This document shows positions 1 through 63,345 of a stretch of DNA of 64,000 nucleotides, in pieces (positions within the stretch are counted from its first letter, which is position 1; every line of letters starts with the position of its first letter). The position numbers were made by a program, and so were the translations under genes. Below the pieces are notes generated by a model. That model was given only the letters and a program-made list of their open reading frames with translations, was not told the origin of the DNA and ran no database searches. This DNA is from Escherichia coli (lineage in GTDB: Bacteria; Pseudomonadota; Gammaproteobacteria; Enterobacterales; Enterobacteriaceae), in assembly GCF_044647545.1 (NCBI RefSeq), contig NZ_CP172818.1. One strand, 5' to 3'.

Positions 1-69
1 AAGGAGGCAGTATGGCAGTTTCAGCAAGAAATCAATTAACCGGAACAGTTACGCAGTAGCAATGGGCGC

Positions 70-390
70 TTGAATGATGAAGTAGAACCGACGCCGCAGG
101 TGTGCAAAACTTGCAATTGTTACACACAGCAGCCAGCAGGCTCTTGGCCGGGAAAAAGGAAAAAAAGGCGCCCCCCCGAAAAAGCCCCCGGGGGGAAACG
201 CGGAAAAGAAAAGCGGGGGGGAAACTCCCCCCCCCCACCCGCTGCGCGGCGCGCGGGCAAACACCCGCGAAGGGCGGGGGGAGCCCCCTCCAAAAAAAAA
301 AAGGGGGGGTTTTAAAATGGGGGGGAAAAAAAAAAAAAAGGAAGGAAAAAAAAACCCCCTAAAAAAAAAACACCAAAAAGGAAAAATTTG
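70..390. other. Anomalous low-complexity tract with long A, G and C homopolymer runs; unlike the rest of the window
   Basis: Direct reading: runs such as a14, c10, g7; the two ORFs across it encode Lys/Arg/Gly/Pro-rich nonsense. Confidence 0.6.
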
Positions 391-412
391 CCGGAGAGTA
401 TGGCTCTCCGGC
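390..412. terminator. GC-rich hairpin (gccggagag / ctctccggc) downstream of ygbA, with T-rich flanks on both strands; putative bidirectional terminator
   Basis: Inverted repeat read directly. Confidence 0.5.
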
Positions 413-416
413 AGAT

Positions 417-761
417 TTATTTCTTTGGACGATATTTTTCTGGCAACTCCGGCACCGGACGCTTGTCATCGATGAGATGACGCACGGTTAAGATCGGATG
501 ACGCCACAGCATTCGCGGCCCGGCCCAACGCATAATCTGTTTCATCTCTTCACGCTTTGCTGGCTGGTAACAGTGCACCGGACACTGCTTACAGGCTGGT
601 TTCTCTTCGCCGAACACACATTTATCCAGCCGCTTTTGCGCGTAGGCAAACAGCGCGTCGTAATGCTCCGGCTCCGCTGACGCCTGCGGGCATTTCGCTT
701 GATAAAGATCGATCATTTTTTTAATCGTCAGTTTTTCACGAGAGATACGCTTGCCGGACAT
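417..761 (-). CDS. ygbA: Small Cys-rich protein YgbA (nitric oxide-responsive in E. coli)
   Basis: 114-aa ORF; position upstream of and divergent from mutS; Cys motifs CPQ and CKQCPVHC. Confidence 0.8.
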   Translation of the reverse strand: MSGKRISREKLTIKKMIDLYQAKCPQASAEPEHYDALFAYAQKRLDKCVFGEEKPACKQCPVHCYQPAKREEMKQIMRWAGPRMLWRHPILTVRHLIDDKRPVPELPEKYRPKK

Positions 762-1047
762 GCTGCCTCCATACTCTTAAGGTGTATTTATATTACAACT
801 TAATTTGAAAGGGGACTATGGCTCTGAAGGAGGAGGTTTATTCAACCGACGCAATTTTGCGTACTTGCTTCATAAGCATCACGCAAAAGCTGCAAAACAG
901 CATCTTTCCCGGAATCACCATCAAGAACTCGCCGTTCGCTTCTTCCCCTGAAATGATTAACTCCGGTATCATGTGCGCCTTATGTGATAACAACGAAAAT
1001 AAAAACCATCACACCCCATTTAATATCAGGGAACCGGACATAACCCC

Positions 1048-3609
1048 ATGAGTGCAATAGAAAATTTCGATGCCCATACGCCCATGATGCAGCAGTATCT
1101 CAAGCTGAAAGCCCAGCATCCCGAGATCCTGCTGTTTTACCGGATGGGCGACTTTTATGAACTGTTTTATGACGACGCAAAACGGGCGTCGCAACTGCTG
1201 GATATTTCACTGACCAAACGCGGTGCTTCAGCGGGAGAGCCAATCCCGATGGCGGGGATTCCCTACCATGCGGTGGAAAACTACCTCGCCAAACTGGTGA
1301 ACCAGGGCGAATCGGTTGCTATTTGTGAACAGATTGGCGATCCGGCGACCAGCAAAGGGCCGGTCGAGCGCAAAGTTGTCCGTATCGTTACGCCGGGCAC
1401 CATCAGCGATGAAGCGCTGTTGCAGGAACGTCAGGACAACCTGCTGGCGGCTATCTGGCAGGACAGTAAAGGTTTCGGCTACGCAACGCTGGATATCAGT
1501 TCCGGTCGTTTTCGCCTGAGCGAACCGGCGGACCGCGAAACGATGGCGGCAGAACTGCAACGTACGAATCCAGCGGAATTACTGTATGCGGAAGATTTCG
1601 CCGAGATGTCGCTGATTGAAGGTCGCCGCGGCCTGCGTCGTCGCCCGCTGTGGGAGTTTGAAATCGACACCGCGCGCCAGCAGTTAAACTTGCAATTTGG
1701 CACTCGCGATCTGGTCGGTTTTGGCGTCGAGAACGCGCCGCGCGGACTTTGTGCCGCCGGTTGTCTGTTGCAATATGCGAAAGATACCCAACGCACGACC
1801 CTGCCGCATATTCGTTCTATCACTATGGAACGTGAGCAGGACAGCATCATTATGGATGCCGCGACGCGTCGTAACCTGGAAATCACCCAGAATCTGGCGG
1901 GTGGTGCGGAAAATACGCTGGCTTCTGTGCTCGACTGCACCGTCACGCCGATGGGCAGCCGTATGCTGAAACGCTGGCTGCATATGCCAGTGCGCGATAC
2001 CCGCGTCTTGCTTGAGCGCCAGCAAACTATTGGCGCATTGCAGGATTTCACCGCCGAGCTGCAGCCGGTACTGCGTCAGGTCGGCGACCTGGAACGTATT
2101 CTGGCGCGTCTGGCTTTACGAACCGCTCGCCCACGCGATCTGGCCCGTATGCGTCACGCTTTCCAGCAACTGCCGGAGCTGCGTGCACTATTAGAAAATG
2201 TCGAAAGCGCACCGGTACAGGCGCTGCGTGAGAAGATGGGCGAGTTTGCCGAACTGCGCGATCTGCTGGAGCGGGCCATTATCGACACACCGCCGGTACT
2301 GGTGCGCGACGGTGGTGTTATCGCGCCGGGCTATAACGAAGAGCTGGATGAGTGGCGGGCGCTGGCTGACGGCGCGACCGATTATCTGGAGCGTCTGGAA
2401 ATCCGCGAGCGTGAACGTACCGGCCTGGACACGCTGAAAGTCGGCTTTAACGCGGTTCATGGTTATTACATTCAGATCAGCCGTGGACAAAGCCATCTGG
2501 CACCCATCAACTATATGCGTCGCCAGACGCTGAAAAACGCCGAACGCTACATTATTCCAGAGCTAAAAGAGTATGAAGACAAAGTACTCACCTCGAAAGG
2601 TAAAGCACTGGCACTGGAAAAACAGCTTTATGAAGAGTTGTTCGACCTGCTGTTGCCGCATCTGGAAGCGTTGCAACAGAGCGCGAGCGCGCTGGCGGAA
2701 CTCGACGTGCTGGTGAACCTGGCGGAACGGGCCTATACCCTGAACTACACCTGCCCGACCTTTATTGATAAACCTGGCATTCGCATTACCGAAGGCCGCC
2801 ATCCAGTGGTTGAACAGGTACTGAACGAACCGTTTATCGCTAACCCGCTAAACCTGTCGCCACAGCGCCGCATGTTGATCATTACCGGTCCGAACATGGG
2901 CGGTAAAAGTACCTATATGCGCCAGACCGCGTTGATTGCGCTGATGGCGTATATCGGCAGCTACGTACCGGCGCAAAAAGTCGAGATTGGCCCGATCGAC
3001 CGTATCTTTACCCGCGTAGGCGCGGCAGACGATCTGGCATCCGGGCGTTCAACCTTTATGGTGGAGATGACCGAAACCGCCAATATTTTACATAACGCCA
3101 CCGAATATAGTCTGGTGTTGATGGATGAGATCGGGCGTGGAACGTCCACTTACGATGGTCTGTCGCTGGCGTGGGCATGCGCGGAAAATCTGGCAAATAA
3201 GATCAAAGCGTTGACGCTGTTTGCTACCCACTATTTCGAGCTGACCCAGTTACCGGAGAAAATGGAAGGCGTCGCCAACGTGCATCTCGATGCGCTGGAG
3301 CACGGCGACACCATTGCCTTTATGCACAGCGTGCAGGATGGCGCGGCGAGCAAAAGCTACGGCCTGGCGGTTGCAGCTCTGGCAGGCGTGCCAAAAGAGG
3401 TTATTAAGCGCGCACGGCAAAAACTGCGTGAGCTGGAAAGCATTTCGCCGAACGCCGCCGCTACACAGGTTGATGGTACGCAGATGTCCCTGCTTTCTGC
3501 GCCAGAAGAAACGTCGCCTGCGGTCGAGGCACTGGAAAACCTCGACCCGGATTCACTGACTCCGCGTCAGGCGCTGGAGTGGATTTATCGGTTGAAGAGT
3601 CTGGTGTAA
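1048..3609 (+). CDS. mutS: DNA mismatch repair protein MutS
   Basis: 853-aa ORF; Walker [10 protein letters not shown]; N-terminal [17 protein letters not shown] matches E. coli MutS. Confidence 0.97.
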
Positions 3610-3615
3610 TAACAA

Positions 3616-3642
3616 TTCCCGATAGTCTTTTGCTATCGGGAA
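3616..3642 (+). terminator. Hairpin (ttcccgatag / ctatcgggaa) just after the mutS stop
   Basis: 10-bp inverted repeat with a 7-nt loop. Confidence 0.5.
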
Positions 3643-3714
3643 TATTAACGACAACTGACGAATCAAATAAAAATACCCTGTATAATAGGAAATCTTATTT
3701 TACAGGGTAAAACC

Positions 3715-4371
3715 ATGCCATCTACACGCTATCAAAAAATTAATGCCCATCACTATCGTTATATATGGGCCGTTGGTGATATTCATGGTGACTATCAATT
3801 ATTACAATCCCGCTTACATCAACTCTCTTTTTGCCCTGAAACCGACTTACTTATTTCCACAGGCGATAATATTGATCGTGGGCCGAAGAGTCTTAACGTG
3901 CTGCACCTGCTAAACCAACCCTGGTTTACGTCGGTTAAAGGCAACCACGAAGCGATGGCGTTGGATGCATTCGAAACTGGCGATGGAAATATGTGGCTTG
4001 CCAGCGGTGGTGACTGGTTTTTCGATTTAAATGATTCAGAGCAACAAGCGGCAATAGATCTGTTGCTGAAATTCCATCACCTTCCACATATTATTGAAGT
4101 TACTAACGACAACACAAAATATGTCATCACACATGCAGATTATCCGGGGAATGAATATCTCTTTGGTAAAGAAATAGCGGAGAGCGAATTACTCTGGCCT
4201 GTTGATCGTGTGCAGAAATCGCTTAATGGCGAGTTACAACAAATAAACGGCGCTGATTATTTTATATTTGGACATATGGTGTTTGATAACATTCAGACGT
4301 TCGCAAACCAGATTTATATTGATACCGGATCGCCGAAAAGCGGGCGGCTGTCATTTTATAAAATAAAGTAG
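3715..4371 (+). CDS. pphB: Serine/threonine protein phosphatase 2 (PPP family)
   Basis: 218-aa ORF; metallophosphatase motifs GDIHGD, GDNIDRG, GNHE. Confidence 0.9.
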   Translation: MPSTRYQKINAHHYRYIWAVGDIHGDYQLLQSRLHQLSFCPETDLLISTGDNIDRGPKSLNVLHLLNQPWFTSVKGNHEAMALDAFETGDGNMWLASGGDWFFDLNDSEQQAAIDLLLKFHHLPHIIEVTNDNTKYVITHADYPGNEYLFGKEIAESELLWPVDRVQKSLNGELQQINGADYFIFGHMVFDNIQTFANQIYIDTGSPKSGRLSFYKIK

Positions 4372-4372
4372 T

Positions 4373-4398
4373 CTCATGCTTCTTCTGTGAAGCATGAG
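4373..4398. terminator. Hairpin (ctcatgcttc / gaagcatgag) between the convergent genes pphB and ygbI
   Basis: Inverted repeat read directly; no clear T-run on the plus strand. Confidence 0.4.
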
Positions 4399-4420
4399 TA
4401 ACCGAGATGTTCTGCAGGCC

Positions 4421-5190
4421 CCTACTCATTTTTCGCTACCAGCAAAGAGAGATCCTGCTTCGCCAGCACGCAACTGGCGCTCTCCGGCGAAGCCGCATAT
4501 CTAATAATCTGATCAAACTAGTAATGGTAACGCCAGCCATGTCGCCACCTGACCATATTTCGTCGCATCACAGACCAAAACTCGCTGGCGGCTGGCACTG
4601 GCAATCGCCCGTTTCACCGTGACTTTATCTTTCCGCTGGCGTAAATCCCCCGCACACTCCATGACGATGCAGAAATAAAAACCTGATCAATCATCAGGCT
4701 GCGCAGCATGGTCGCAGCGGCTTCCCCGACACAGGAACGGTTTTCCCGACACACTGCACCGCCAGTGTGAATAATTGTGCAATTACTGTTGTCAGCAAGT
4801 AGTTCGCAATAACGAAATCGTTTGTGACCACAGTCAGTGACTCCATGTGAATCAGATGCTGTGCTATCGCTAACGTGGTCGTTCCCGCATCCAGATAGAT
4901 ACAACTTTCCGGCTGAACAGACTTTTGCCGCCAGCTTGCCAATAGCCGCTTTTTGCGTCATTGCCAGCGCAGTTTTACCTAAGTTCGCCATGCGCCACGC
5001 GTCCCGGAGACTGGACGCCTCCGGACACCCAGCACAACGGCTCCCTGCTGCTCCAGTTTTTGTAAATCCCGACGAATGGTCATATGTGACACATTACTCA
5101 TTCTGTCCGTTAGTTCAGCAATACTGACAATGCCTTTTTCAGCTTATCTCAAGGATCATCTGGCGACGCTCTACGGGTATCAACTTTTGC
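4421..5190 (-). pseudogene. ygbI: DeoR-family transcriptional regulator YgbI, disrupted by multiple frameshifts in this sequence
   Basis: Segments matching YgbI (IAELTDRMSNVSHMTIRRDLQKLEQQGAVVL; VSGGVQSPGRVAH; KTALAMTQKAAIGKLAA; CIYLDAGTTTLAIAQHLIHMESLTVVTNDFVIANYLL; NSNCTIIHTGGAVCRENRSCVGEAAATMLRSLMIDQVFISASSWSVRG) lie in different frames on the minus strand; longest intact ORF is 125 aa. Confidence 0.75.
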
Positions 5191-5382
5191 TCCTTCCTTT
5201 GTCCTGCTGACATTCTACGCTATTTGCCTGCGAAACGTGCGCGGCGCAACTAACGCTTAGTTCACATAAAATAACACACAATGTTAATTTATGTGAATCA
5301 GCTCACCATATCGTTATCTTCCAGCGCTTATATTCACAATATCAAACAAAATATCACTTAAATTAACCAACAAGGAGAGCAG

Positions 5383-6291
5383 ATGAAAACGGGATCTGAG
5401 TTTCATGTCGGTATCGTTGGCTTAGGGTGAATGGGAATGGGAGCAGCACTGTCATGTGTCACGAGCAGGTCTTTCTACCTGGGGCGCAGACCTGAACAGC
5501 AATGCCTGCGCTACGTTGAAAGAGGCAGGTGCTTGCGGGGTTGCTTGATAACGCCGCGACGTTTGCCGAAAAACTGGACATTATGCTGGTGCTGGTGGTA
5601 AATGCGGCCCAGGTTAAACAGGTGCTGTTTGGTGAAACGGCGTTTGCACAACATCTGAAACCCGGTACGGCAGTAATGGTTTCTTCCACTATCGCTAGTG
5701 CTGATCGCGCAAGAAATTGCTACCGCTCTGGCTGGATTCGATCTGGAAATGCTGGATGCGCCAGTTTCTGGTGGTGCAGTAAAAGCCGCTAACGGTGAAA
5801 TGACTGTCATGGCCTCCGGTAGCGATATTGCCTTTGAACGACTGGCACCCGTGCTGGAAGCCGTTGCCGGAAAAGTTTATCGCATAGGTGCAGAACCGGG
5901 ACTAAAGAGTTCGACCATTAAAGTTCTTCACCAGTTAGCGGGCGTACATATTGCTGCCGGAGCCGAAGCGATGGCACTTGCAGCCCGTGGGATCCCGCTG
6001 GATGTGATGTATGACGTCGTGACCAATGCCGCCGGAAATTCCTGGATGTTCGAAAACCAGATACGTCATGTGGTGGATGGCGATTACACCCCGCATTCAG
6101 CCGTCGATATTTTTGTTAAGGATCTTGGTCTGGTTGCCGATACAGCCAAAGCCCTGCACTTCCCGCTGCCATTGGCCTCAACAGCATTGAATATGTTCAC
6201 CAGCGCCAGTAACGCGGGTTACGGGAAAGAAGACGATAGCGCAGTTATCAAGATTTTCTCTGGCATCACTCTACCGGGAGCGAAATCATGA
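5383..6291 (+). pseudogene. ygbJ: 3-hydroxyisobutyrate dehydrogenase-family enzyme (L-threonate dehydrogenase YgbJ/LtnD), disrupted by an in-frame TGA and frameshifts
   Basis: MKTGSEFHVGIVGLG followed by TGA at about 5428–5430; homologous pieces in three frames (ORFs 5529..5792 and 5698..6291). Confidence 0.75.
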
Positions 6292-7454
6292 TCAAGATTG
6301 GCGTTATCGCCGATGATTTTACCGGCGCGACGGATATCGCCAGTTTTCTGGTGGAAAACGGTCTACCAACGGTACAAATTAACGGTGTTCCAACAGGTAA
6401 AATGCCGGAAGCAATCGACGCACTGGTGATCAGCCTGAAAACGCGCTCCTGTCCAGTGGTTGAAGCCACACAGCAATCGCTGGCGGCTCTGAGCTGGTTG
6501 CAACAGCAAGGTTGCAAACAGATCTATTTCAAATACTGCTCTACTTTCGACAGTACGGCGAAAGGTAATATTGGCCCGGTTACCGATGCCTTAATGGATG
6601 CTCTCGACACGCCGTTTACGGTCTTCTCTCCGGCCCTGCCGGTCAACGGACGTACGGTTTATCAGGGGTATTTGTTCGTAATGAATCAACTGCTGGCCGA
6701 ATCCGGGATGCGCCATCACCCGGTAAATCCCATGACCGACAGCTATCTTCCCCGTCTGGTTGAAGCGCAATCCACAGGGCGCTGCGGCGTCGTTTCGGCA
6801 CATGTTTTCGAACAAGGTGTGGATGCCGTTCGTCAAGAGCTGGCTCGCTTACAGCAAGAGGGCTACCGCTACGCGGTGCTTGATGCGCTGACCGAACACC
6901 ATCTGGAAATTCAGGGAGAAGCCTTGCGCGATGCCCCACTGGTAACGGGCGGTTCTGGTCTGGCGATTGGCCTGGCCCGGCAGTGGGCGCAAGAAAACGG
7001 TAACCAGGCTCGCAAAGCAGGGCGTCCGCTCGCTGGGCGCGGCGTAGTGCTCTCCGGTTCATGCTCTCAAATGACCAACCGCCAGGTAGCACATTACCGT
7101 CAAATTGCACCAGCCCGTGAAGTTGATGTGGCACGCTGCCTCTCAATTGAAACTCTGGCCGCTTATGCACACGAACTGGCAGAGTGGGTTCTGGGCCAGG
7201 AAAGTGTACTTGCTCCACTGGTTTTTGCCACCGCCAGCACTGACGCATTGGCAGCAATTCAACAGCAATACGGTGCACAAAAAGCCAGTCAGGCAGTAGA
7301 AACACTGTTTTCTCAACTAGCGGCGCGGTTAGCAGCGGAAGGCGTGACACGCTTTATTGTCGCAGGCGGTGAGACCTCCGGCGTAGTCACACAGAGCCTG
7401 GGAATAAAAGGGTTTCATATTGGCCCAACCATTTCCCCGGCGTGCCGTGGGTAA
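6288..7454 (+). CDS. ygbK: Four-carbon acid-sugar kinase family protein (3-oxo-tetronate kinase, YgbK/OtnK)
   Basis: 388-aa ORF; N-terminal MIKIGVIADDFTGATD typical of this kinase family; start overlaps the ygbJ stop. Confidence 0.85.
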   Translation: MIKIGVIADDFTGATDIASFLVENGLPTVQINGVPTGKMPEAIDALVISLKTRSCPVVEATQQSLAALSWLQQQGCKQIYFKYCSTFDSTAKGNIGPVTDALMDALDTPFTVFSPALPVNGRTVYQGYLFVMNQLLAESGMRHHPVNPMTDSYLPRLVEAQSTGRCGVVSAHVFEQGVDAVRQELARLQQEGYRYAVLDALTEHHLEIQGEALRDAPLVTGGSGLAIGLARQWAQENGNQARKAGRPLAGRGVVLSGSCSQMTNRQVAHYRQIAPAREVDVARCLSIETLAAYAHELAEWVLGQESVLAPLVFATASTDALAAIQQQYGAQKASQAVETLFSQLAARLAAEGVTRFIVAGGETSGVVTQSLGIKGFHIGPTISPACRG

Positions 7455-7545
7455 ACGCACTGGATAAGCCTGTCTCACTCGCCCTTAAATCTGGCAACTT
7501 CGGTGATGACGCCTTTTTTTCACGAGCCCAAAGAGAGTTTTTATC

Positions 7546-8184
7546 ATGAGCGATTTCGCAAAAGTAGAGCAGTCTTTGCGAGAGGAGATGACGCGGATTG
7601 CCAGTTCATTCTTTCAGCGCGGCTATGCAACCGGTTCGGCTGGCAATCTGTCGCTGCTTTTACCTGACGGGAATTTACTGGCGACACCGACAGGTTCATG
7701 CCTGGGCAATCTCGATCCGCAGCGGCTTTCCAAAGTCGCCGCGGATGGCGAATGGTTAAGTGGTGACAAACCCTCGAAAGAGGTGCTCTTTCATCTGGCG
7801 CTGTATCGCAACAATCCGCGCTGTAAAGCGGTGGTGCATTTGCACAGCACATGGTCGACGGCGCTTTCCTGCCTGCAAGGGCTGGACAGCAGCAACGTTA
7901 TTCGTCCGTTCACACCATACGTGGTGATGCGGATGGGAAATGTCCCGCTGGTGCCTTATTACCGACCGGGCGATAAACGCATCGCACAGGATCTGGCGGA
8001 ACTGGCAGCAGACAATCAGGCTTTTTTACTGGCAAATCATGGCCCAGTGGTTTGCGGTGAAAGCCTGCAAGAAGCCGCCAACAATATGGAAGAGCTGGAG
8101 GAAACGGCAAAGCTGATTTTTATTCTCGGTGACCGCCCGATCCGTTATCTGACCGCAGGTGAAATTGCGGAATTAAGGAGTTAA
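7546..8184 (+). CDS. ygbL: Class II aldolase/adducin-family protein (3-oxo-tetronate 4-phosphate decarboxylase, YgbL/OtnC)
   Basis: 212-aa ORF; operon context. Confidence 0.85.
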
Positions 8185-8188
8185 TGCA

Positions 8189-8965
8189 ATGCCTCGTTTT
8201 GCAGCTAATTTATCCATGATGTTCACCGAAGTGCCTTTTATTGAACGCTTCGCCGCAGCGCGAAAAGCCGGGTTCGATGCTGTGGAATTTCTGTTTCCCT
8301 ATAACTACTCCACCCTGCAAATCCAAAAGCAACTGGAGCAAAACCATCTGACACTGGCGCTGTTCAATACCGCTCCCGGAGATATTAATGCGGGGGAATG
8401 GGGATTATCCGCCCTTCCCGGACGTGAGCACGAAGCACACGCAGACATCGACCTGGCACTGGAATATGCATTGGCGCTCAATTGTGAACAAGTCCATGTG
8501 ATGGCAGGCGTCGTGCCCGCTGGCGAAGATGCTGAACGGTACCGGGCAGTATTTATCGATAATATCCGCTACGCTGCCGACCGCTTTGCGCCACACGGCA
8601 AGCGAATATTAGTTGAAGCACTCAGCCCCGGCGTTAAGCCTCATTATCTCTTCTCCAGCCAGTATCAGGCACTGGCTATTGTTGAAGAGGTTGCGCGAGA
8701 TAACGTGTTTATTCAACTAGATACTTTTCATGCGCAAAAAGTAGATGGCAACCTGACGCATTTAATCCGCGACTACGCCGGGAAATATGCGCACGTACAA
8801 ATTGCCGGACTACCTGATCGACATGAACCGGACGATGGAGAAATCAACTATCCGTGGCTGTTCCGCCTGTTCGATGAGGTGGGATATCAGGGCTGGATCG
8901 GTTGTGAATATAAACCTCGTGGCCTCACCGAAGAAGGGCTTGGCTGGTTTGACGCCTGGCGCTAA
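8189..8965 (+). CDS. ygbM: Hydroxypyruvate isomerase-like TIM-barrel protein (2-oxo-tetronate isomerase, YgbM/OtnI)
   Basis: 258-aa ORF; operon context. Confidence 0.85.
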
Positions 8966-9053
8966 TTCGTTAAATCCCTAATTACAACGTACCCATACAT
9001 CCCCCCATCTACGGATGGGGTAGGTTAACTATAACTTTCAGACAGGGTTTCCC

Positions 9054-10418
9054 ATGTCCACAATTACATTGTTATGCATTGCGTTAGCTGGCGTAATCAT
9101 GCTGTTGCTGCTGGTCATCAAGGCAAAGGTACAACCATTCGTTGCTTTGCTCCTCGTCAGCCTGTTAGTCGCACTTGCGGCAGGTATACCGGCGGGCGAA
9201 GTGGGTAAAGTGATGATCGCCGGGATGGGCGGTGTGCTTGGTTCCGTCACTATTATTATTGGTCTGGGCGCTATGCTGGGGCGTATGATCGAACACTCTG
9301 GTGGTGCAGAGTCACTGGCTAATTATTTCAGTCGCAAGTTAGGTGACAAACGAACTATCGCTGCGCTGACTCTGGCAGCGTTCTTCCTCGGTATTCCCGT
9401 CTTCTTTGATGTCGGCTTTATTATTCTTGCGCCAATCATTTACGGTTTTGCCAAGGTTGCCAAAATATCGCCACTCAAATTTGGCCTGCCTGTCGCTGGG
9501 ATCATGCTCACTGTTCACGTGGCGGTACCGCCGCATCCAGGCCCTGTCGCCGCAGCGGGGTTACTCCACGCAGACATCGGCTGGCTAACCATCATCGGTA
9601 TTGCGATTTCTATTCCCGTAGGGGTTGTTGGCTACTTTGCAGCGAAAATAATCAATAAGCGCCAATATGCGATGTCAGTAGAAGTACTGGAACAGATGCA
9701 ACTGGCTCCGGCCAGTGAGGAAGGCGCGACAAAATTAAGCGATAAAATAAATCCACCGGGCGTCGCGCTGGTCACCTCGCTAATTGTTATTCCTATCGCG
9801 ATTATCATGGCGGGTACGGTTTCCGCAACACTGATGCCGCCTTCGCATCCCCTGCTTGGTACGCTACAGCTGATCGGCTCACCAATGGTAGCTCTAATGA
9901 TTGCGCTGGTGCTGGCATTCTGGTTATTGGCTTTACGTCGCGGCTGGAGCTTACAACACACCAGCGACATTATGGGCTCAGCGCTTCCTACTGCGGCGGT
10001 AGTGATTTTGGTTACTGGTGCTGGAGGGGTATTTGGCAAAGTGCTGGTGGAATCGGGCGTCGGCAAAGCCCTTGCCAACATGCTACAAATGATTGACCTG
10101 CCTCTGTTACCAGCCGCATTTATTATTTCACTGGCGCTGCGTGCATCGCAGGGGTCAGCAACCGTAGCAATACTGACAACCGGCGGGTTACTCTCAGAAG
10201 CGGTGATGGGATTGAATCCGATTCAGTGCGTATTGGTGACGCTGGCAGCCTGCTTTGGTGGGCTTGGTGCGTCACATATTAATGACTCAGGGTTCTGGAT
10301 TGTGACCAAATATCTGGGGTTGTCGGTAGCAGACGGTCTGAAAACCTGGACAGTGTTAACGACCATTCTCGGTTTTACCGGATTCTTAATTACCTGGTGC
10401 GTATGGGCGGTAATTTGA
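9054..10418 (+). CDS. ygbN: GntP-family acid-sugar permease
   Basis: 454-aa highly hydrophobic ORF. Confidence 0.85.
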   Translation: MSTITLLCIALAGVIMLLLLVIKAKVQPFVALLLVSLLVALAAGIPAGEVGKVMIAGMGGVLGSVTIIIGLGAMLGRMIEHSGGAESLANYFSRKLGDKRTIAALTLAAFFLGIPVFFDVGFIILAPIIYGFAKVAKISPLKFGLPVAGIMLTVHVAVPPHPGPVAAAGLLHADIGWLTIIGIAISIPVGVVGYFAAKIINKRQYAMSVEVLEQMQLAPASEEGATKLSDKINPPGVALVTSLIVIPIAIIMAGTVSATLMPPSHPLLGTLQLIGSPMVALMIALVLAFWLLALRRGWSLQHTSDIMGSALPTAAVVILVTGAGGVFGKVLVESGVGKALANMLQMIDLPLLPAAFIISLALRASQGSATVAILTTGGLLSEAVMGLNPIQCVLVTLAACFGGLGASHINDSGFWIVTKYLGLSVADGLKTWTVLTTILGFTGFLITWCVWAVI

Positions 10419-10430
10419 CCTTAATAAAAA

Positions 10431-10457
10431 GGTCCGATGGGCATCGGACCTTTTATT
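10431..10457. terminator. Rho-independent bidirectional terminator between ygbN and rpoS (ggtccgatg ggc atcggacc + TTTTATT; A-run upstream)
   Basis: Perfect 9-bp stem flanked by A and T tracts. Confidence 0.8.
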
Positions 10458-10511
10458 GTGCACAGAAAAGGCCAGCCTCATAAGAGACTGGCCTTTATGA
10501 CAGATGCTTAC

Positions 10512-21652: not shown

Positions 21653-22418
21653 CGGTTTATCCCCGCTGGCGCGGGGAATCGCCGGAAAATATTCATGATG
21701 GGGGTGGTTATGGCGGTTTATCCCCGCTGGCGCGGGGAATCTCGGGGCCGCCGTGTTCACATTTGCCTAATTTCCCGGTTTATCCCCGCTGGCGCGGGGA
21801 ACTCTATCATAAACGAGGTGAATTTATGGAAACTGTACGGTTTATCCCCGCTGGCGCGGGGAACTCGTTAGTTTTCGAAAAAATTGTTTTCTTACGCTGG
21901 TTTATCCCCGCTGGCGCGGGGAACTCAATTATTGTCGTGGACAAATGCCGGTGTTATTGCGGTTTATCCCCGCTGGCGCGGGGAACTCATTCGAGACAAT
22001 CTCTCAAAATTAATGAAATCGGTTTATCCCCGCTGGCGCGGGGAACTCCAGGTATCAAGAAATAATCGAAGCCTTCATGACGGTTTATCCCCGCTGGCGC
22101 GGGGAACTCAATTGATTGCTGGGTGATATTGGAAAATGTTGCGGTTTATCCCCGCTGGCGCGGGGAACTCCTACCGTACAGATCCTGACCGGATATTATT
22201 TTTTTGCGGTTTATCCCCGCTGGCGCGGGGAACTCCGACGTTCGACGAAATGCGCGATGGCGGTCGGCGGTTTATCCCCGCTGGCGCGGGGAACTCTTCT
22301 GCGTCCCCGATGTCTGGCCCGACTGGTCCGGTTTATCCCCGCTGGCGCGGGGAACTCTATATGACCGGAACACTTCCGCCTGACGTTTGCGGTTTATCCC
22401 CGCTGGCGCGGGGAACTC
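21653..22418 (-). CRISPR. CRISPR array, type I-E repeat (plus strand CGGTTTATCCCCGCTGGCGCGGGGAACTC), 13 repeats and 12 spacers; leader at the high-coordinate end
   Basis: Repeat starts at about 21653, 21714, 21776, 21838, 21898, 21960, 22020, 22081, 22142, 22207, 22268, 22329, 22390; the two leader-distal repeats end GAATCG/GAATCT. Confidence 0.97.
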
Positions 22419-47964: not shown

Positions 47965-48367
47965 TGGTTCATCCCCGCTGGCGCGGGGAACACGTCTTTT
48001 TGACCGGCCGGTAAATCGTCTGCCTGCGGTTTATCCCCGCTGGCGCGGGGAACACAAACCATTCTCGCAATCAAGGACTATTCCTAGACGGTTTATCCCC
48101 GCTGGCGCGGGGAACACGGTCGCAGGGAATACAAAGCCGTGCATCCTGCTCGGTTTATCCCCGCTGGCGCGGGGAACACTGGCTCTGCAACAGCAGCACT
48201 ATGACCCCGTCGGTTTATCCCCGCTGGCGCGGGGAACACGAAAAGCTTATGATCGTTAATGCCGCAAACACCGGTTTATCCCCGCTGGCGCGGGGAACAC
48301 ATTACACCTATGTGCGAGCGCCCGGTTTTTGCCGCTAGCGGTTTATCCCCGCTGGCGCGGGGAACAC
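47965..48367 (-). CRISPR. Orphan CRISPR array, 7 repeats and 6 spacers, repeat variant ending GAACAC (plus strand CGGTTTATCCCCGCTGGCGCGGGGAACAC)
   Basis: Repeat starts at about 47965, 48027, 48089, 48151, 48211, 48272, 48339; the first repeat is a variant (ggttcatcc). Confidence 0.95.
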
Positions 48368-62004: not shown

Positions 62005-63345
62005 TTAACGCACCATGCACGGGCGCTTGTTATCAAACGTCCAGCCAGGAATCAGGTACTGCATTCCCATCGCATCGTCACGCGCGCCAAGCCCGTGTTT
62101 CTGATACAGCTCGTGGGCTTTCATCACCTGATCCATATCGATTTCTACGCCCAATCCTGGTTTTTGCGGCACCTGTACCAGCCCGCCTTTGATCTCAAAC
62201 GGTTCTTTGGTCAGACGCTGATTGCCTTCCTGCCAGATCCAGTGCGTATCAATAGCAGTAATTTTACCCGGTGCAGCAGCGGCTACATGGGTAAACATCG
62301 CCAGGGAAATATCGAAGTGGTTGTTAGAGTGTGAACCCCAGGTCAGGCCAAATTCATGGCACATTTGCGCCACACGTACCGAACCTTGCATCGTCCAGAA
62401 ATGCGGATCCGCCAGCGGGATATCAACGGATTGCAGGGAGAGCGTATGGCCCATCTGCCGCCAGTCGGTGGCGATCATATTGGTTGCGGTCGGCAGGCCA
62501 GTCGCGCGACGGAACTCTGCCATCACTTCACGCCCGGAGAAACCTTGCTCCGCACCACACGGATCTTCTGCATAAGCCAGCGAACCTTTCAGGTATTTAC
62601 CAATTTTAATCGCTTCGTTCAGCGACCAGGCACCGTTAGGATCGAGGGTAATACGCGCCTGTGGGAAGCGTTGCGCCAGTGCCACAATAGATTCTGCTTC
62701 TTCTTCCCCGGCCAGTACACCGCCCTTCAGTTTGAAATCGTTGAAGCCATATTTTTCATATGCCGCTTCCGCCAGGCGCACCACCGCATCCGGCGTCATC
62801 GCTTCTTCGTGACGCAGGCGATACCAGTCACATTGATCATCCGGCTGGCTTTGATACGGCAGCGGTGTGGCTTTGCGATTACCGACGAAGAACAGATAAC
62901 CGAGCATTTCGACTTCGCTACGCTGTTGACCATCGCCCAGCAGCGATGCCACGTTAACCCCCAGATGCTGCCCCAGCAGATCCAGCATTGCCGCTTCTAT
63001 CCCGGTAACCACATGAATAGTGGTCCGCAGGTCAAATGTCTGCAAACCGCGCCCGCCGGCATCACGATCGGCAAATGTATTACGCACCAGCGTCAGAACG
63101 TTTTTGTATTCACCCAGCGTTTTACCCACCACCAGCGGAATCGCATCTTCCAGCGTTTTACGGATTTTCTCGCCGCCGGGAATTTCCCCTACCCCAGTGT
63201 GACCAGAATTATCTTTGATAATCACAATATTACGCGTGAAGAACGGTGCGTGTGCACCACTCAGATTCATCAGCATACTGTCATGGCCCGCCACCGGGAT
63301 GACCTGCATTTCAGTAACAACAGGCGTCGTAAATTGAGAACTCAT
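62005..63345 (-). CDS. gudD: Glucarate dehydratase (enolase superfamily)
   Basis: Start taken at [23 protein letters not shown] (446 aa). Confidence 0.93.

Follow-up and report, generated by a model that had tools for sequence, protein, structure and literature searches.

Two adjacent genes of an Escherichia coli contig, ygbI and ygbJ, are broken in many places, raising the question of whether they decayed in a living lineage or were damaged while the sequence was being reconstructed. The DNA analysed here, referred to as the window, is a stretch of 64,000 nucleotides from contig NZ_CP172818.1 (RefSeq assembly GCF_044647545.1). A first-pass annotation of the sequence had offered two alternatives: true pseudogenisation of the two genes, or a localised patch of sequencing or assembly error. 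To distinguish between them, we analysed the lesions themselves, the sequence surrounding them, their occurrence in public data, and other irregularities in the same window.

Results

Two broken genes in the mutS-rpoS region

The window covers the mutS-rpoS region of E. coli, with the genes in the order mutS, pphB, ygbI (minus strand), ygbJ, ygbK, ygbL, ygbM, ygbN and rpoS (Table 1). From pphB to rpoS this is also the gene order of the K-12 ygb locus (pphB-ygbI-ygbJ-ygbK-ygbL-ygbM-ygbN-rpoS). In the window, however, 16 indels and a nonsense codon disrupt ygbI and ygbJ, and the whole copy is set in a non-K-12 backbone. YgbI, a repressor of the DeoR type, binds in the ygbI-ygbJ intergenic region and keeps ygbJK repressed; its effect on ygbLM and ygbN is likewise repressive but indirect (PMC8464067). 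Laboratory evolution on m-tartrate has yielded ygbI mutations accompanied by overexpression of ygbJKLMN (PMC6452873).

Table 1. Coordinates of genes, seams and damaged patches in the window
Feature	Position	Strand	State
Second damaged patch	50-385	+	Backbone-specific TOBE-domain gene turned into homopolymer garbage
mutS	1048-3609		
pphB	3715-4371	+	Intact ORF, 218 aa
ygbI remnant	4422-5183	-	DeoR-family repressor of ygbJK; nine indels and substitution clusters
ygbI-ygbJ divergent promoter/operator region	5184-5382		AACC insertion
ygbJ/ltnD remnant	5383-6291	+	Stop at codon 16 and frameshifts
K-12 MG1655-identical stretch	6064-10479	+	ygbJ 3' end, ygbK, ygbL, ygbM, ygbN
ygbK	6288-7454		388 aa, K-12 frameshifted form
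ygbL	7546-8184		Intact
ygbM	8189-8965		Intact
ygbN	9054-10418		Intact
Third damaged patch	21678-22190		CRISPR1, small indels
Fourth damaged patch	47990-48345		CRISPR2, garbled K-12-type spacers
gudD site	62459-62460		Single copy; 37-nt tandem duplication of the backbone strain absent

The first-pass annotation had correctly identified ygbI as the DeoR-type repressor and ygbJ as the dehydrogenase of the tetronate/threonate operon. Position (pphB-ygbJ) and a nucleotide identity of approximately 96% to annotated ygbI/ltnD in thousands of genomes mark the ygbI remnant as the orthologue. The alignment to reference ygbI and ygbJ that it had proposed was run against K-12 MG1655, and enumerates nine indels in ygbI and six in ygbJ. 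The nine in ygbI are -2 at 4522, +1 at 4630, -2 at 4643, -1 at 4794, +1 at 4922, -5 at approximately 4988, +1 at 5028, +3 at 5095 and -2 at 5145, a net change of -9. YgbI homology is consequently split, as had been noticed from the translations (at least three minus-strand frames), and it occupies all three frames of that strand. The NCBIfam model for YgbI, NF040890, has a curated cut-off of 400 bits, and a full ORF is about 255 aa long. No single ORF of this length reaching 400 bits was found in the window; the two longest ORFs with YgbI similarity, of 82 aa and 40 aa, reach 72.7 and 33.2 bits.

Between the two genes, a 4-nt insertion (AACC) is present at 5365-5368. The same intergenic region carries the widespread E. 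coli allele, not that of K-12, at positions 5302 and 5311.

In ygbJ, the start translates as MKTGSEFHVGIVGLG and is followed by an in-frame TGA at 5428-5430 (codon 16), produced from TCA by a C>G change at 5429. Where at least two further frame changes had been noted, the alignment places three single-base insertions, at 5461, 5543 and 5706. The other three indels are in frame (+3 at 5905, -3 at 5934 and -3 at 5989), and the six together leave the length unchanged. Three-frame translation follows the homology from frame 1 to 2 to 3 and back to 1. The last lesions lie at 6059 and 6063. An open frame spans the C-terminal 197 codons (5698-6291) and reaches 315.1 bits on the NCBIfam model for LtnD, the L-threonate dehydrogenase (NF043037, cut-off 350 bits); another fragment, of 87 aa, scores 54.6 bits. 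With the 197-aa fragment as the largest, no single LtnD ORF of the full length of about 302 aa reaching 350 bits was found in the window.

The neighbouring genes pphB and ygbK to ygbN had been described as intact. This holds for pphB, ygbL, ygbM and ygbN, but ygbK is intact only relative to K-12. Its 388-aa product is the K-12 laboratory form, in which a 1-bp deletion at 7434 truncates the 420-aa OtnK of strain L001. The window ORF scores 544 bits on NF043035, the NCBIfam model for OtnK (3-oxo-tetronate kinase; cut-off 350), and covers profile positions 1-384 of 418.

An F-like backbone with a K-12 island

The window is a mosaic. Positions 386-4370 (3,985 nt) are 100.000% identical to the phylogroup-F-like strain WP4-S18-ESBL-09, and positions 10466-64000 are likewise 100% identical to this strain except for two CRISPR arrays and one 37-nt site. 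Altogether the window departs from WP4-S18-ESBL-09 in only five places: the TOBE gene patch (approximately 50-385), the ygb island, CRISPR1, CRISPR2 and a missing 37-nt duplication. Each of the five is a structural difference between that strain and K-12. The group to which WP4-S18-ESBL-09 belongs has a divergent mutS/pphB allele, about 6% from that of K-12. Between pphB and rpoS, WP4-S18-ESBL-09 and IMT16316 carry a hydroxyarylic-acid decarboxylase cluster and a MarR gene and no ygb genes; the window holds ygbI-ygbN in this interval instead.

The island itself has two parts. From 6064 to 10479 it is 100% identical to K-12 MG1655, and all 40 of the listed 100% matches to this stretch appear to be K-12-derived or other laboratory strains. 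At all of the approximately 38 sites that separate K-12 from L001 within it, the ygbK frameshift included, the window agrees with K-12. The damaged part differs: at six sites in 4462-5582 where the MG1655 allele is private, the window carries the widespread allele every time (6/6), whereas from 6216 on it always has the K-12 allele. The damaged and the perfect parts of the island therefore differ in origin, and the widespread alleles imply that some real DNA from a ygb-positive, non-K-12 E. coli contributed. The same six sites lead us to reject the idea that the damaged stretch is K-12 sequence with added noise.

The edges of the island are sharp. At the left seam, which lies within 4339-4371, pphB is that of the F-like strain up to 4370 and its stop codon is TAG as in K-12 (TAA in the F strain), so that the island starts one base past the last backbone-specific position. 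The right seam is a 14-nt stretch, 10466-10479, common to K-12 and the F-like strain. No K-12 alleles were found in the island flanks, and the island limits coincide exactly with the structural-variant boundaries. Aligned with K-12, the window forms a single HSP of 63.5 kb in which the two differ in net length by 5 nt, and all 26 of the small F-versus-K-12 indels in the window (no longer than 11 nt) follow the F strain.

We also considered the 2.9-kb segment of the backbone that the island replaces as a source of the lesions. In a collinear-offset test over 121 shifts the best agreement was 25 matches of 64, and window-specific 7-9-mers were not enriched in this segment over control segments and gave no collinear hits. 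Since the lesions were not copied from the replaced segment, a simple model of misaligned backbone reads leaves them unexplained.

Density and spectrum of the lesions

Lesions were counted for 4371-6063 (1,693 nt) against the widespread ygbI-ygbJ allele. In this stretch 78 alignment columns differ, 30 of them substitutions and 48 gap columns, and they group into approximately 38 clusters, at least 24 of which include indels. Pure substitution events are fewer than indel events. Many clusters are multi-nucleotide scrambles, and several lengthen homopolymers (among them CCC at 4421-4425, TT at 4923 and AAA at 5904). By comparison, not one difference from K-12 occurs in the adjoining 4.4 kb, nor any from the backbone strain in the 4 kb left of the island. 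At a uniform rate, we calculate that the probability of all 38 clusters falling in this 28% of the island is about (0.28)^38, or 1e-21. The clustering of lesions in ygbI-ygbJ is far beyond chance.

In the decay of bacterial pseudogenes, substitutions dominate. Relaxed selection cannot raise the local mutation rate in the manner seen here, and 38 clusters in 1.7 kb beside 4.4 kb without a change from K-12 leave neutral decay unsupported. Inspection of the alignments to K-12 revealed no third-codon-position bias among the substitutions. A diverged homologue would leave synonymous changes concentrated at third positions; this pattern is absent, and such a homologue was rejected as donor of the substitution clusters.

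The lesions are unique in the public data searched

A megablast search with 4372-6300 against 5,426 complete RefSeq E. coli genomes returned no match above 96.1% over ygbI-ygbJ; 839 of the 5,426 genomes lack the stretch altogether. Since no hit exceeded this identity and hardly any genome had a second matching place, we rejected a paralogue or a nearer natural allele as donor. Two of the broken ORFs, of 197 aa and 125 aa, are singleton clusters among approximately 15 billion proteins and trace to one NCBI contig. This contig is 4,499,902 bp long; K-12 has 4.64 Mb, and the listed close relatives of the backbone have 4.94-5.31 Mb.

A naturally evolved pseudogene would be expected to have lesions in common with relatives or with independent assemblies, and among the genomes and proteins searched none of the lesions is shared in this way. 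It would also be expected to have a lesion density like that of its neighbours, with substitutions far outnumbering indels, and here the reverse is found. There is a resemblance to the natural pseudogenes of host-restricted Escherichia and Shigella, in which multiple frameshifts and a premature stop likewise affect dispensable catabolic genes with open flanks. Those pseudogenes, however, are common to clone-mates, have few lesions each, and lie among comparably diverged neighbours, whereas the lesions in the window are unique, very dense and indel-dominated, with zero divergence on the flanks.

Similar damage at the other structural differences

Damage like that in ygbI-ygbJ recurs at each of the window's other structural differences between the F strain and K-12. 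The first is a TOBE-domain gene (window 1-385) that is present in the backbone strain, absent from K-12 and conserved in the relatives examined. After about 50 perfect nucleotides it shows single-base deletions and then 217 nt of T-poor homopolymer garbage (approximately 155-372), composed of 87 A, 65 G, 56 C and 9 T, with runs of up to 14. The mean homopolymer run in this segment is 2.86, compared with 1.37 in the rest of the window, and perfect identity to the backbone returns abruptly at 386. The homopolymer garbage is plainly non-biological, and it lies in the same contig as the broken genes.

Both CRISPR arrays are affected as well. CRISPR1 has the spacers of the backbone strain, but nine repeat-spacer units in a row contain approximately 11 small indels, some lying within repeats, and a few substitutions; the other three units are perfect, as are all flanks. 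CRISPR2 has six spacers, like K-12, and the backbone strain has approximately 20. Its spacers 3-6 are of K-12 type, each with 3-11 differences; spacer 1 is similar to the first of the backbone, and the last is an abnormal 38-nt chimera that ends like the last spacer of the backbone. Identity to this array does not exceed about 90% in any complete E. coli genome, and nearly all listed carriers of the K-12-type array, natural and laboratory alike, show the same 90.1%. Finally, a 37-nt tandem duplication that the backbone strain has in gudD is present as a single copy (position 62459). The anomalies thus fall exactly at the structural differences between two identifiable source genomes.

Discussion

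The breaks in ygbI and ygbJ are very probably errors of sequence reconstruction and not mutations of a living lineage, judging from the sequence and its comparison with public genomes. The alternative of a localised patch of sequencing or assembly error gains support from the like damage at the other structural differences in the window. True pseudogenisation is not supported: the lesions are dominated by indels, confined to 1.7 kb and unique, and the backbone relatives examined have no ygb genes at this place.

How might such a sequence arise? The single-base alleles and small indels would come from a phylogroup-F-like E. coli near WP4-S18-ESBL-09, and the large-scale structure would follow a K-12-like template. 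Where the two differ in structure, one outcome would be untouched K-12 sequence, as from the ygbJ 3' end to ygbN and at the missing 37-nt duplication; the other would be low-accuracy, indel-rich sequence, as in the TOBE gene, the two CRISPR arrays, and ygbI together with the initial two-thirds of ygbJ. For the broken ygbI-ygbJ stretch the simplest picture is one of support from very few or noisy reads, or of failed polishing, with a join inside ygbJ to template sequence. Candidate procedures include template-guided assembly or polishing, and mixed, mismatched or contaminated read sets. The mosaic, the placement of the anomalies, and the spectrum and uniqueness of the lesions are direct observations; the kind of procedure behind them is inferred.

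The window has much in common with known artefacts of reference bias or mis-polishing, which arise when genomes are assembled by template-guided or hybrid methods. In these, SNPs and small indels come from the sample and large insertions and deletions from the template; template-only regions are verbatim template and the total length relative to the template is kept; repeats such as CRISPR arrays and sample-specific insertions become low-accuracy sequence or garbage. All of this is seen in the window. It departs from such artefacts in that further reads must be invoked to account for the six non-K-12 alleles of the damaged stretch, and in that the backbone's replaced segment has left no trace.

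Two more specific procedures were considered and set aside. A plain read-mapping consensus on K-12 is insufficient, as the garbled insertion of approximately 370 nt is absent from K-12 and the CRISPR1 spacers are of backbone type. Model-generated or imputed sequence, considered for the degenerate low-complexity run, fits poorly with a window that matches one specific strain at 100% over tens of kilobases.

Some observations stand apart from the reconstruction-error reading. The widespread alleles at all six informative sites count against it in that the damaged stretch is not simply noisy K-12. CRISPR1 has backbone-type rather than K-12 spacers, so that a template model needs the equal lengths of the arrays to account for it. 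In addition, natural loss-of-function mutations of ygbI arise under selection (PMC6452873), so that a real lesion at this gene is not implausible.

Three other explanations were weighed against reconstruction error. They are disfavoured because they leave the homopolymer garbage and the CRISPR patches unexplained or need crossovers at every structural boundary. The first accepts the island and rejects the lesions: the strain would be a genuine hybrid or a naturally ygb-positive relative, with poor base calls only in 4371-6063. Errors rich in indels are typical of unpolished long-read or low-quality reads, and the spectrum here is of this kind; the natural alleles at the six sites also indicate that real ygbI-ygbJ DNA was read. 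However, crossovers would have been needed exactly at each structural-variant boundary in 64 kb, a K-12-type CRISPR2 together with the private ygbK-ygbN alleles of K-12 is biologically hard to place in an F-type clone, and the contig falls 0.4-0.8 Mb short of the listed close relatives of the backbone. We consider this explanation unlikely.

Very unlikely, in our judgement, is a second explanation in which both the island and the lesions are real: an F-type strain, clinical or environmental, would have swapped its mutS-rpoS segment precisely for a K-12-like ygb island, with highly error-prone, indel-rich synthesis at the left end of the tract destroying the repressor and the first enzyme. Recombination is known to have a hotspot in the mutS-rpoS interval, the sequence does show F-type flanks around an island identical to K-12, and the damage is densest beside the left junction. 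Against this, known repair polymerases err at rates orders of magnitude below the approximately 2-4% changes per base seen here, and the right crossover would have to land in 14 nt of identity. Moreover, the damaged and perfect parts differ in allelic origin, and this explanation does not account for what is seen at four other loci: homopolymer garbage, garbled spacers in the CRISPR arrays and the lack of the 37-nt duplication.

Neutral pseudogenisation, with tetronate/threonate catabolism unneeded and inactivating mutations gathering in ygbI and ygbJ, is the least credible of the three: although both genes are non-essential, lie in a polymorphic interval (the 839 genomes mentioned above lack the ygbI-ygbJ stretch), have open flanking genes and carry natural non-K-12 alleles at six sites, the lesions stop short at an adjoining 4.4 kb and a backbone with zero change, show the reverse of the expected spectrum, and are singletons in all public data searched.

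If the lesions were nevertheless true, loss of YgbI would derepress ygbJKLMN (PMC8464067) and, without LtnD, L-threonate use would stop at its first step, an ordinary and unremarkable loss of a catabolic gene. If instead acquisition of the island with hypermutation were true, the locus would show local hypermutation associated with recombination in nature. Most likely, the damage to ygbI and ygbJ is not a real biological feature and is of little biological importance. Its value is that of a quality warning: the contig appears to be chimeric, combining F-like alleles with a K-12-like structure, and gene presence or absence, pseudogene calls and CRISPR spacer typing taken from this record would mislead.

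Sequence at the start of the window

The first 385 nucleotides of the window hold a gene for a TOBE-domain protein, which the backbone relatives carry and K-12 (MG1655, the comparison genome) lacks. It is faultless at its start and then decays into T-poor homopolymer garbage. These 217 nt consist of 87 A, 65 G, 56 C and only 9 T, with longest runs of 14; from position 386 on, perfect identity is restored. The degraded stretch is non-biological sequence.

The mutS and pphB alleles that follow diverge by about 6% from K-12 and are 100% identical to those of WP4-S18-ESBL-09, the phylogroup-F-like backbone strain. IMT16316 and similar strains show about 99.7% identity to window positions 1–4400. 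In both WP4-S18-ESBL-09 and IMT16316, decarboxylase genes occupy the place of the ygb operon. In a record labelled 'DH5alpha' (NZ_CP026085.1), the ygb region is not K-12-like: otnK encodes 420 aa, and decarboxylase genes lie beyond ygbN. The window carries the K-12 form of ygbK/otnK (388 aa); it owes its length to the loss of 1 bp at 7434 when compared with strain L001, whose OtnK has 420 aa. The rest of the C-terminal codons are in a different frame, within a 35-aa ORF at 7442–7549.

Coordinates of the features discussed
Feature	Window position	Neighbours
TOBE-domain gene	1-385	
stretch with mutS and pphB	386-4370	
ygbK/otnK with the 35-aa ORF	6288-7549	
CRISPR1	21678-22190	adjoins iap and cas2
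CRISPR2	47990-48345	ygcE on one side, queE on the other
gudD, site of the missing duplication	62459-62460	

CRISPR arrays and gudD

Compared with an otherwise 100%-identical strain, CRISPR1 differs over nine consecutive repeat-spacer units by a few substitutions and approximately 11 small indels, some of the latter falling within repeats; the three leader-proximal units are faultless. CRISPR2 has six spacers, as in K-12, whereas the backbone strain has about 20. Spacers 3–6 are of K-12 type but garbled, each with 3–11 differences, and the final one is a K-12/backbone chimera of abnormal length (38 nt). Among 5,426 genomes searched, the top match to this array is about 90%.

In the backbone strain, gudD is a frameshifted pseudogene owing to a 37-nt tandem duplication. 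The duplication is missing from the window, where gudD is in the single-copy state.

The source assembly

The broken ORFs of the indel-damaged ygbI–ygbJ stretch have a single source, one NCBI contig of 4,499,902 bp. A search of the complete E. coli genomes in RefSeq gave no closely matching record, and the contig is 0.4–0.8 Mb shorter than the listed close relatives of the backbone. This suggests that the entire assembly, beyond the window alone, is a template-shaped reconstruction.
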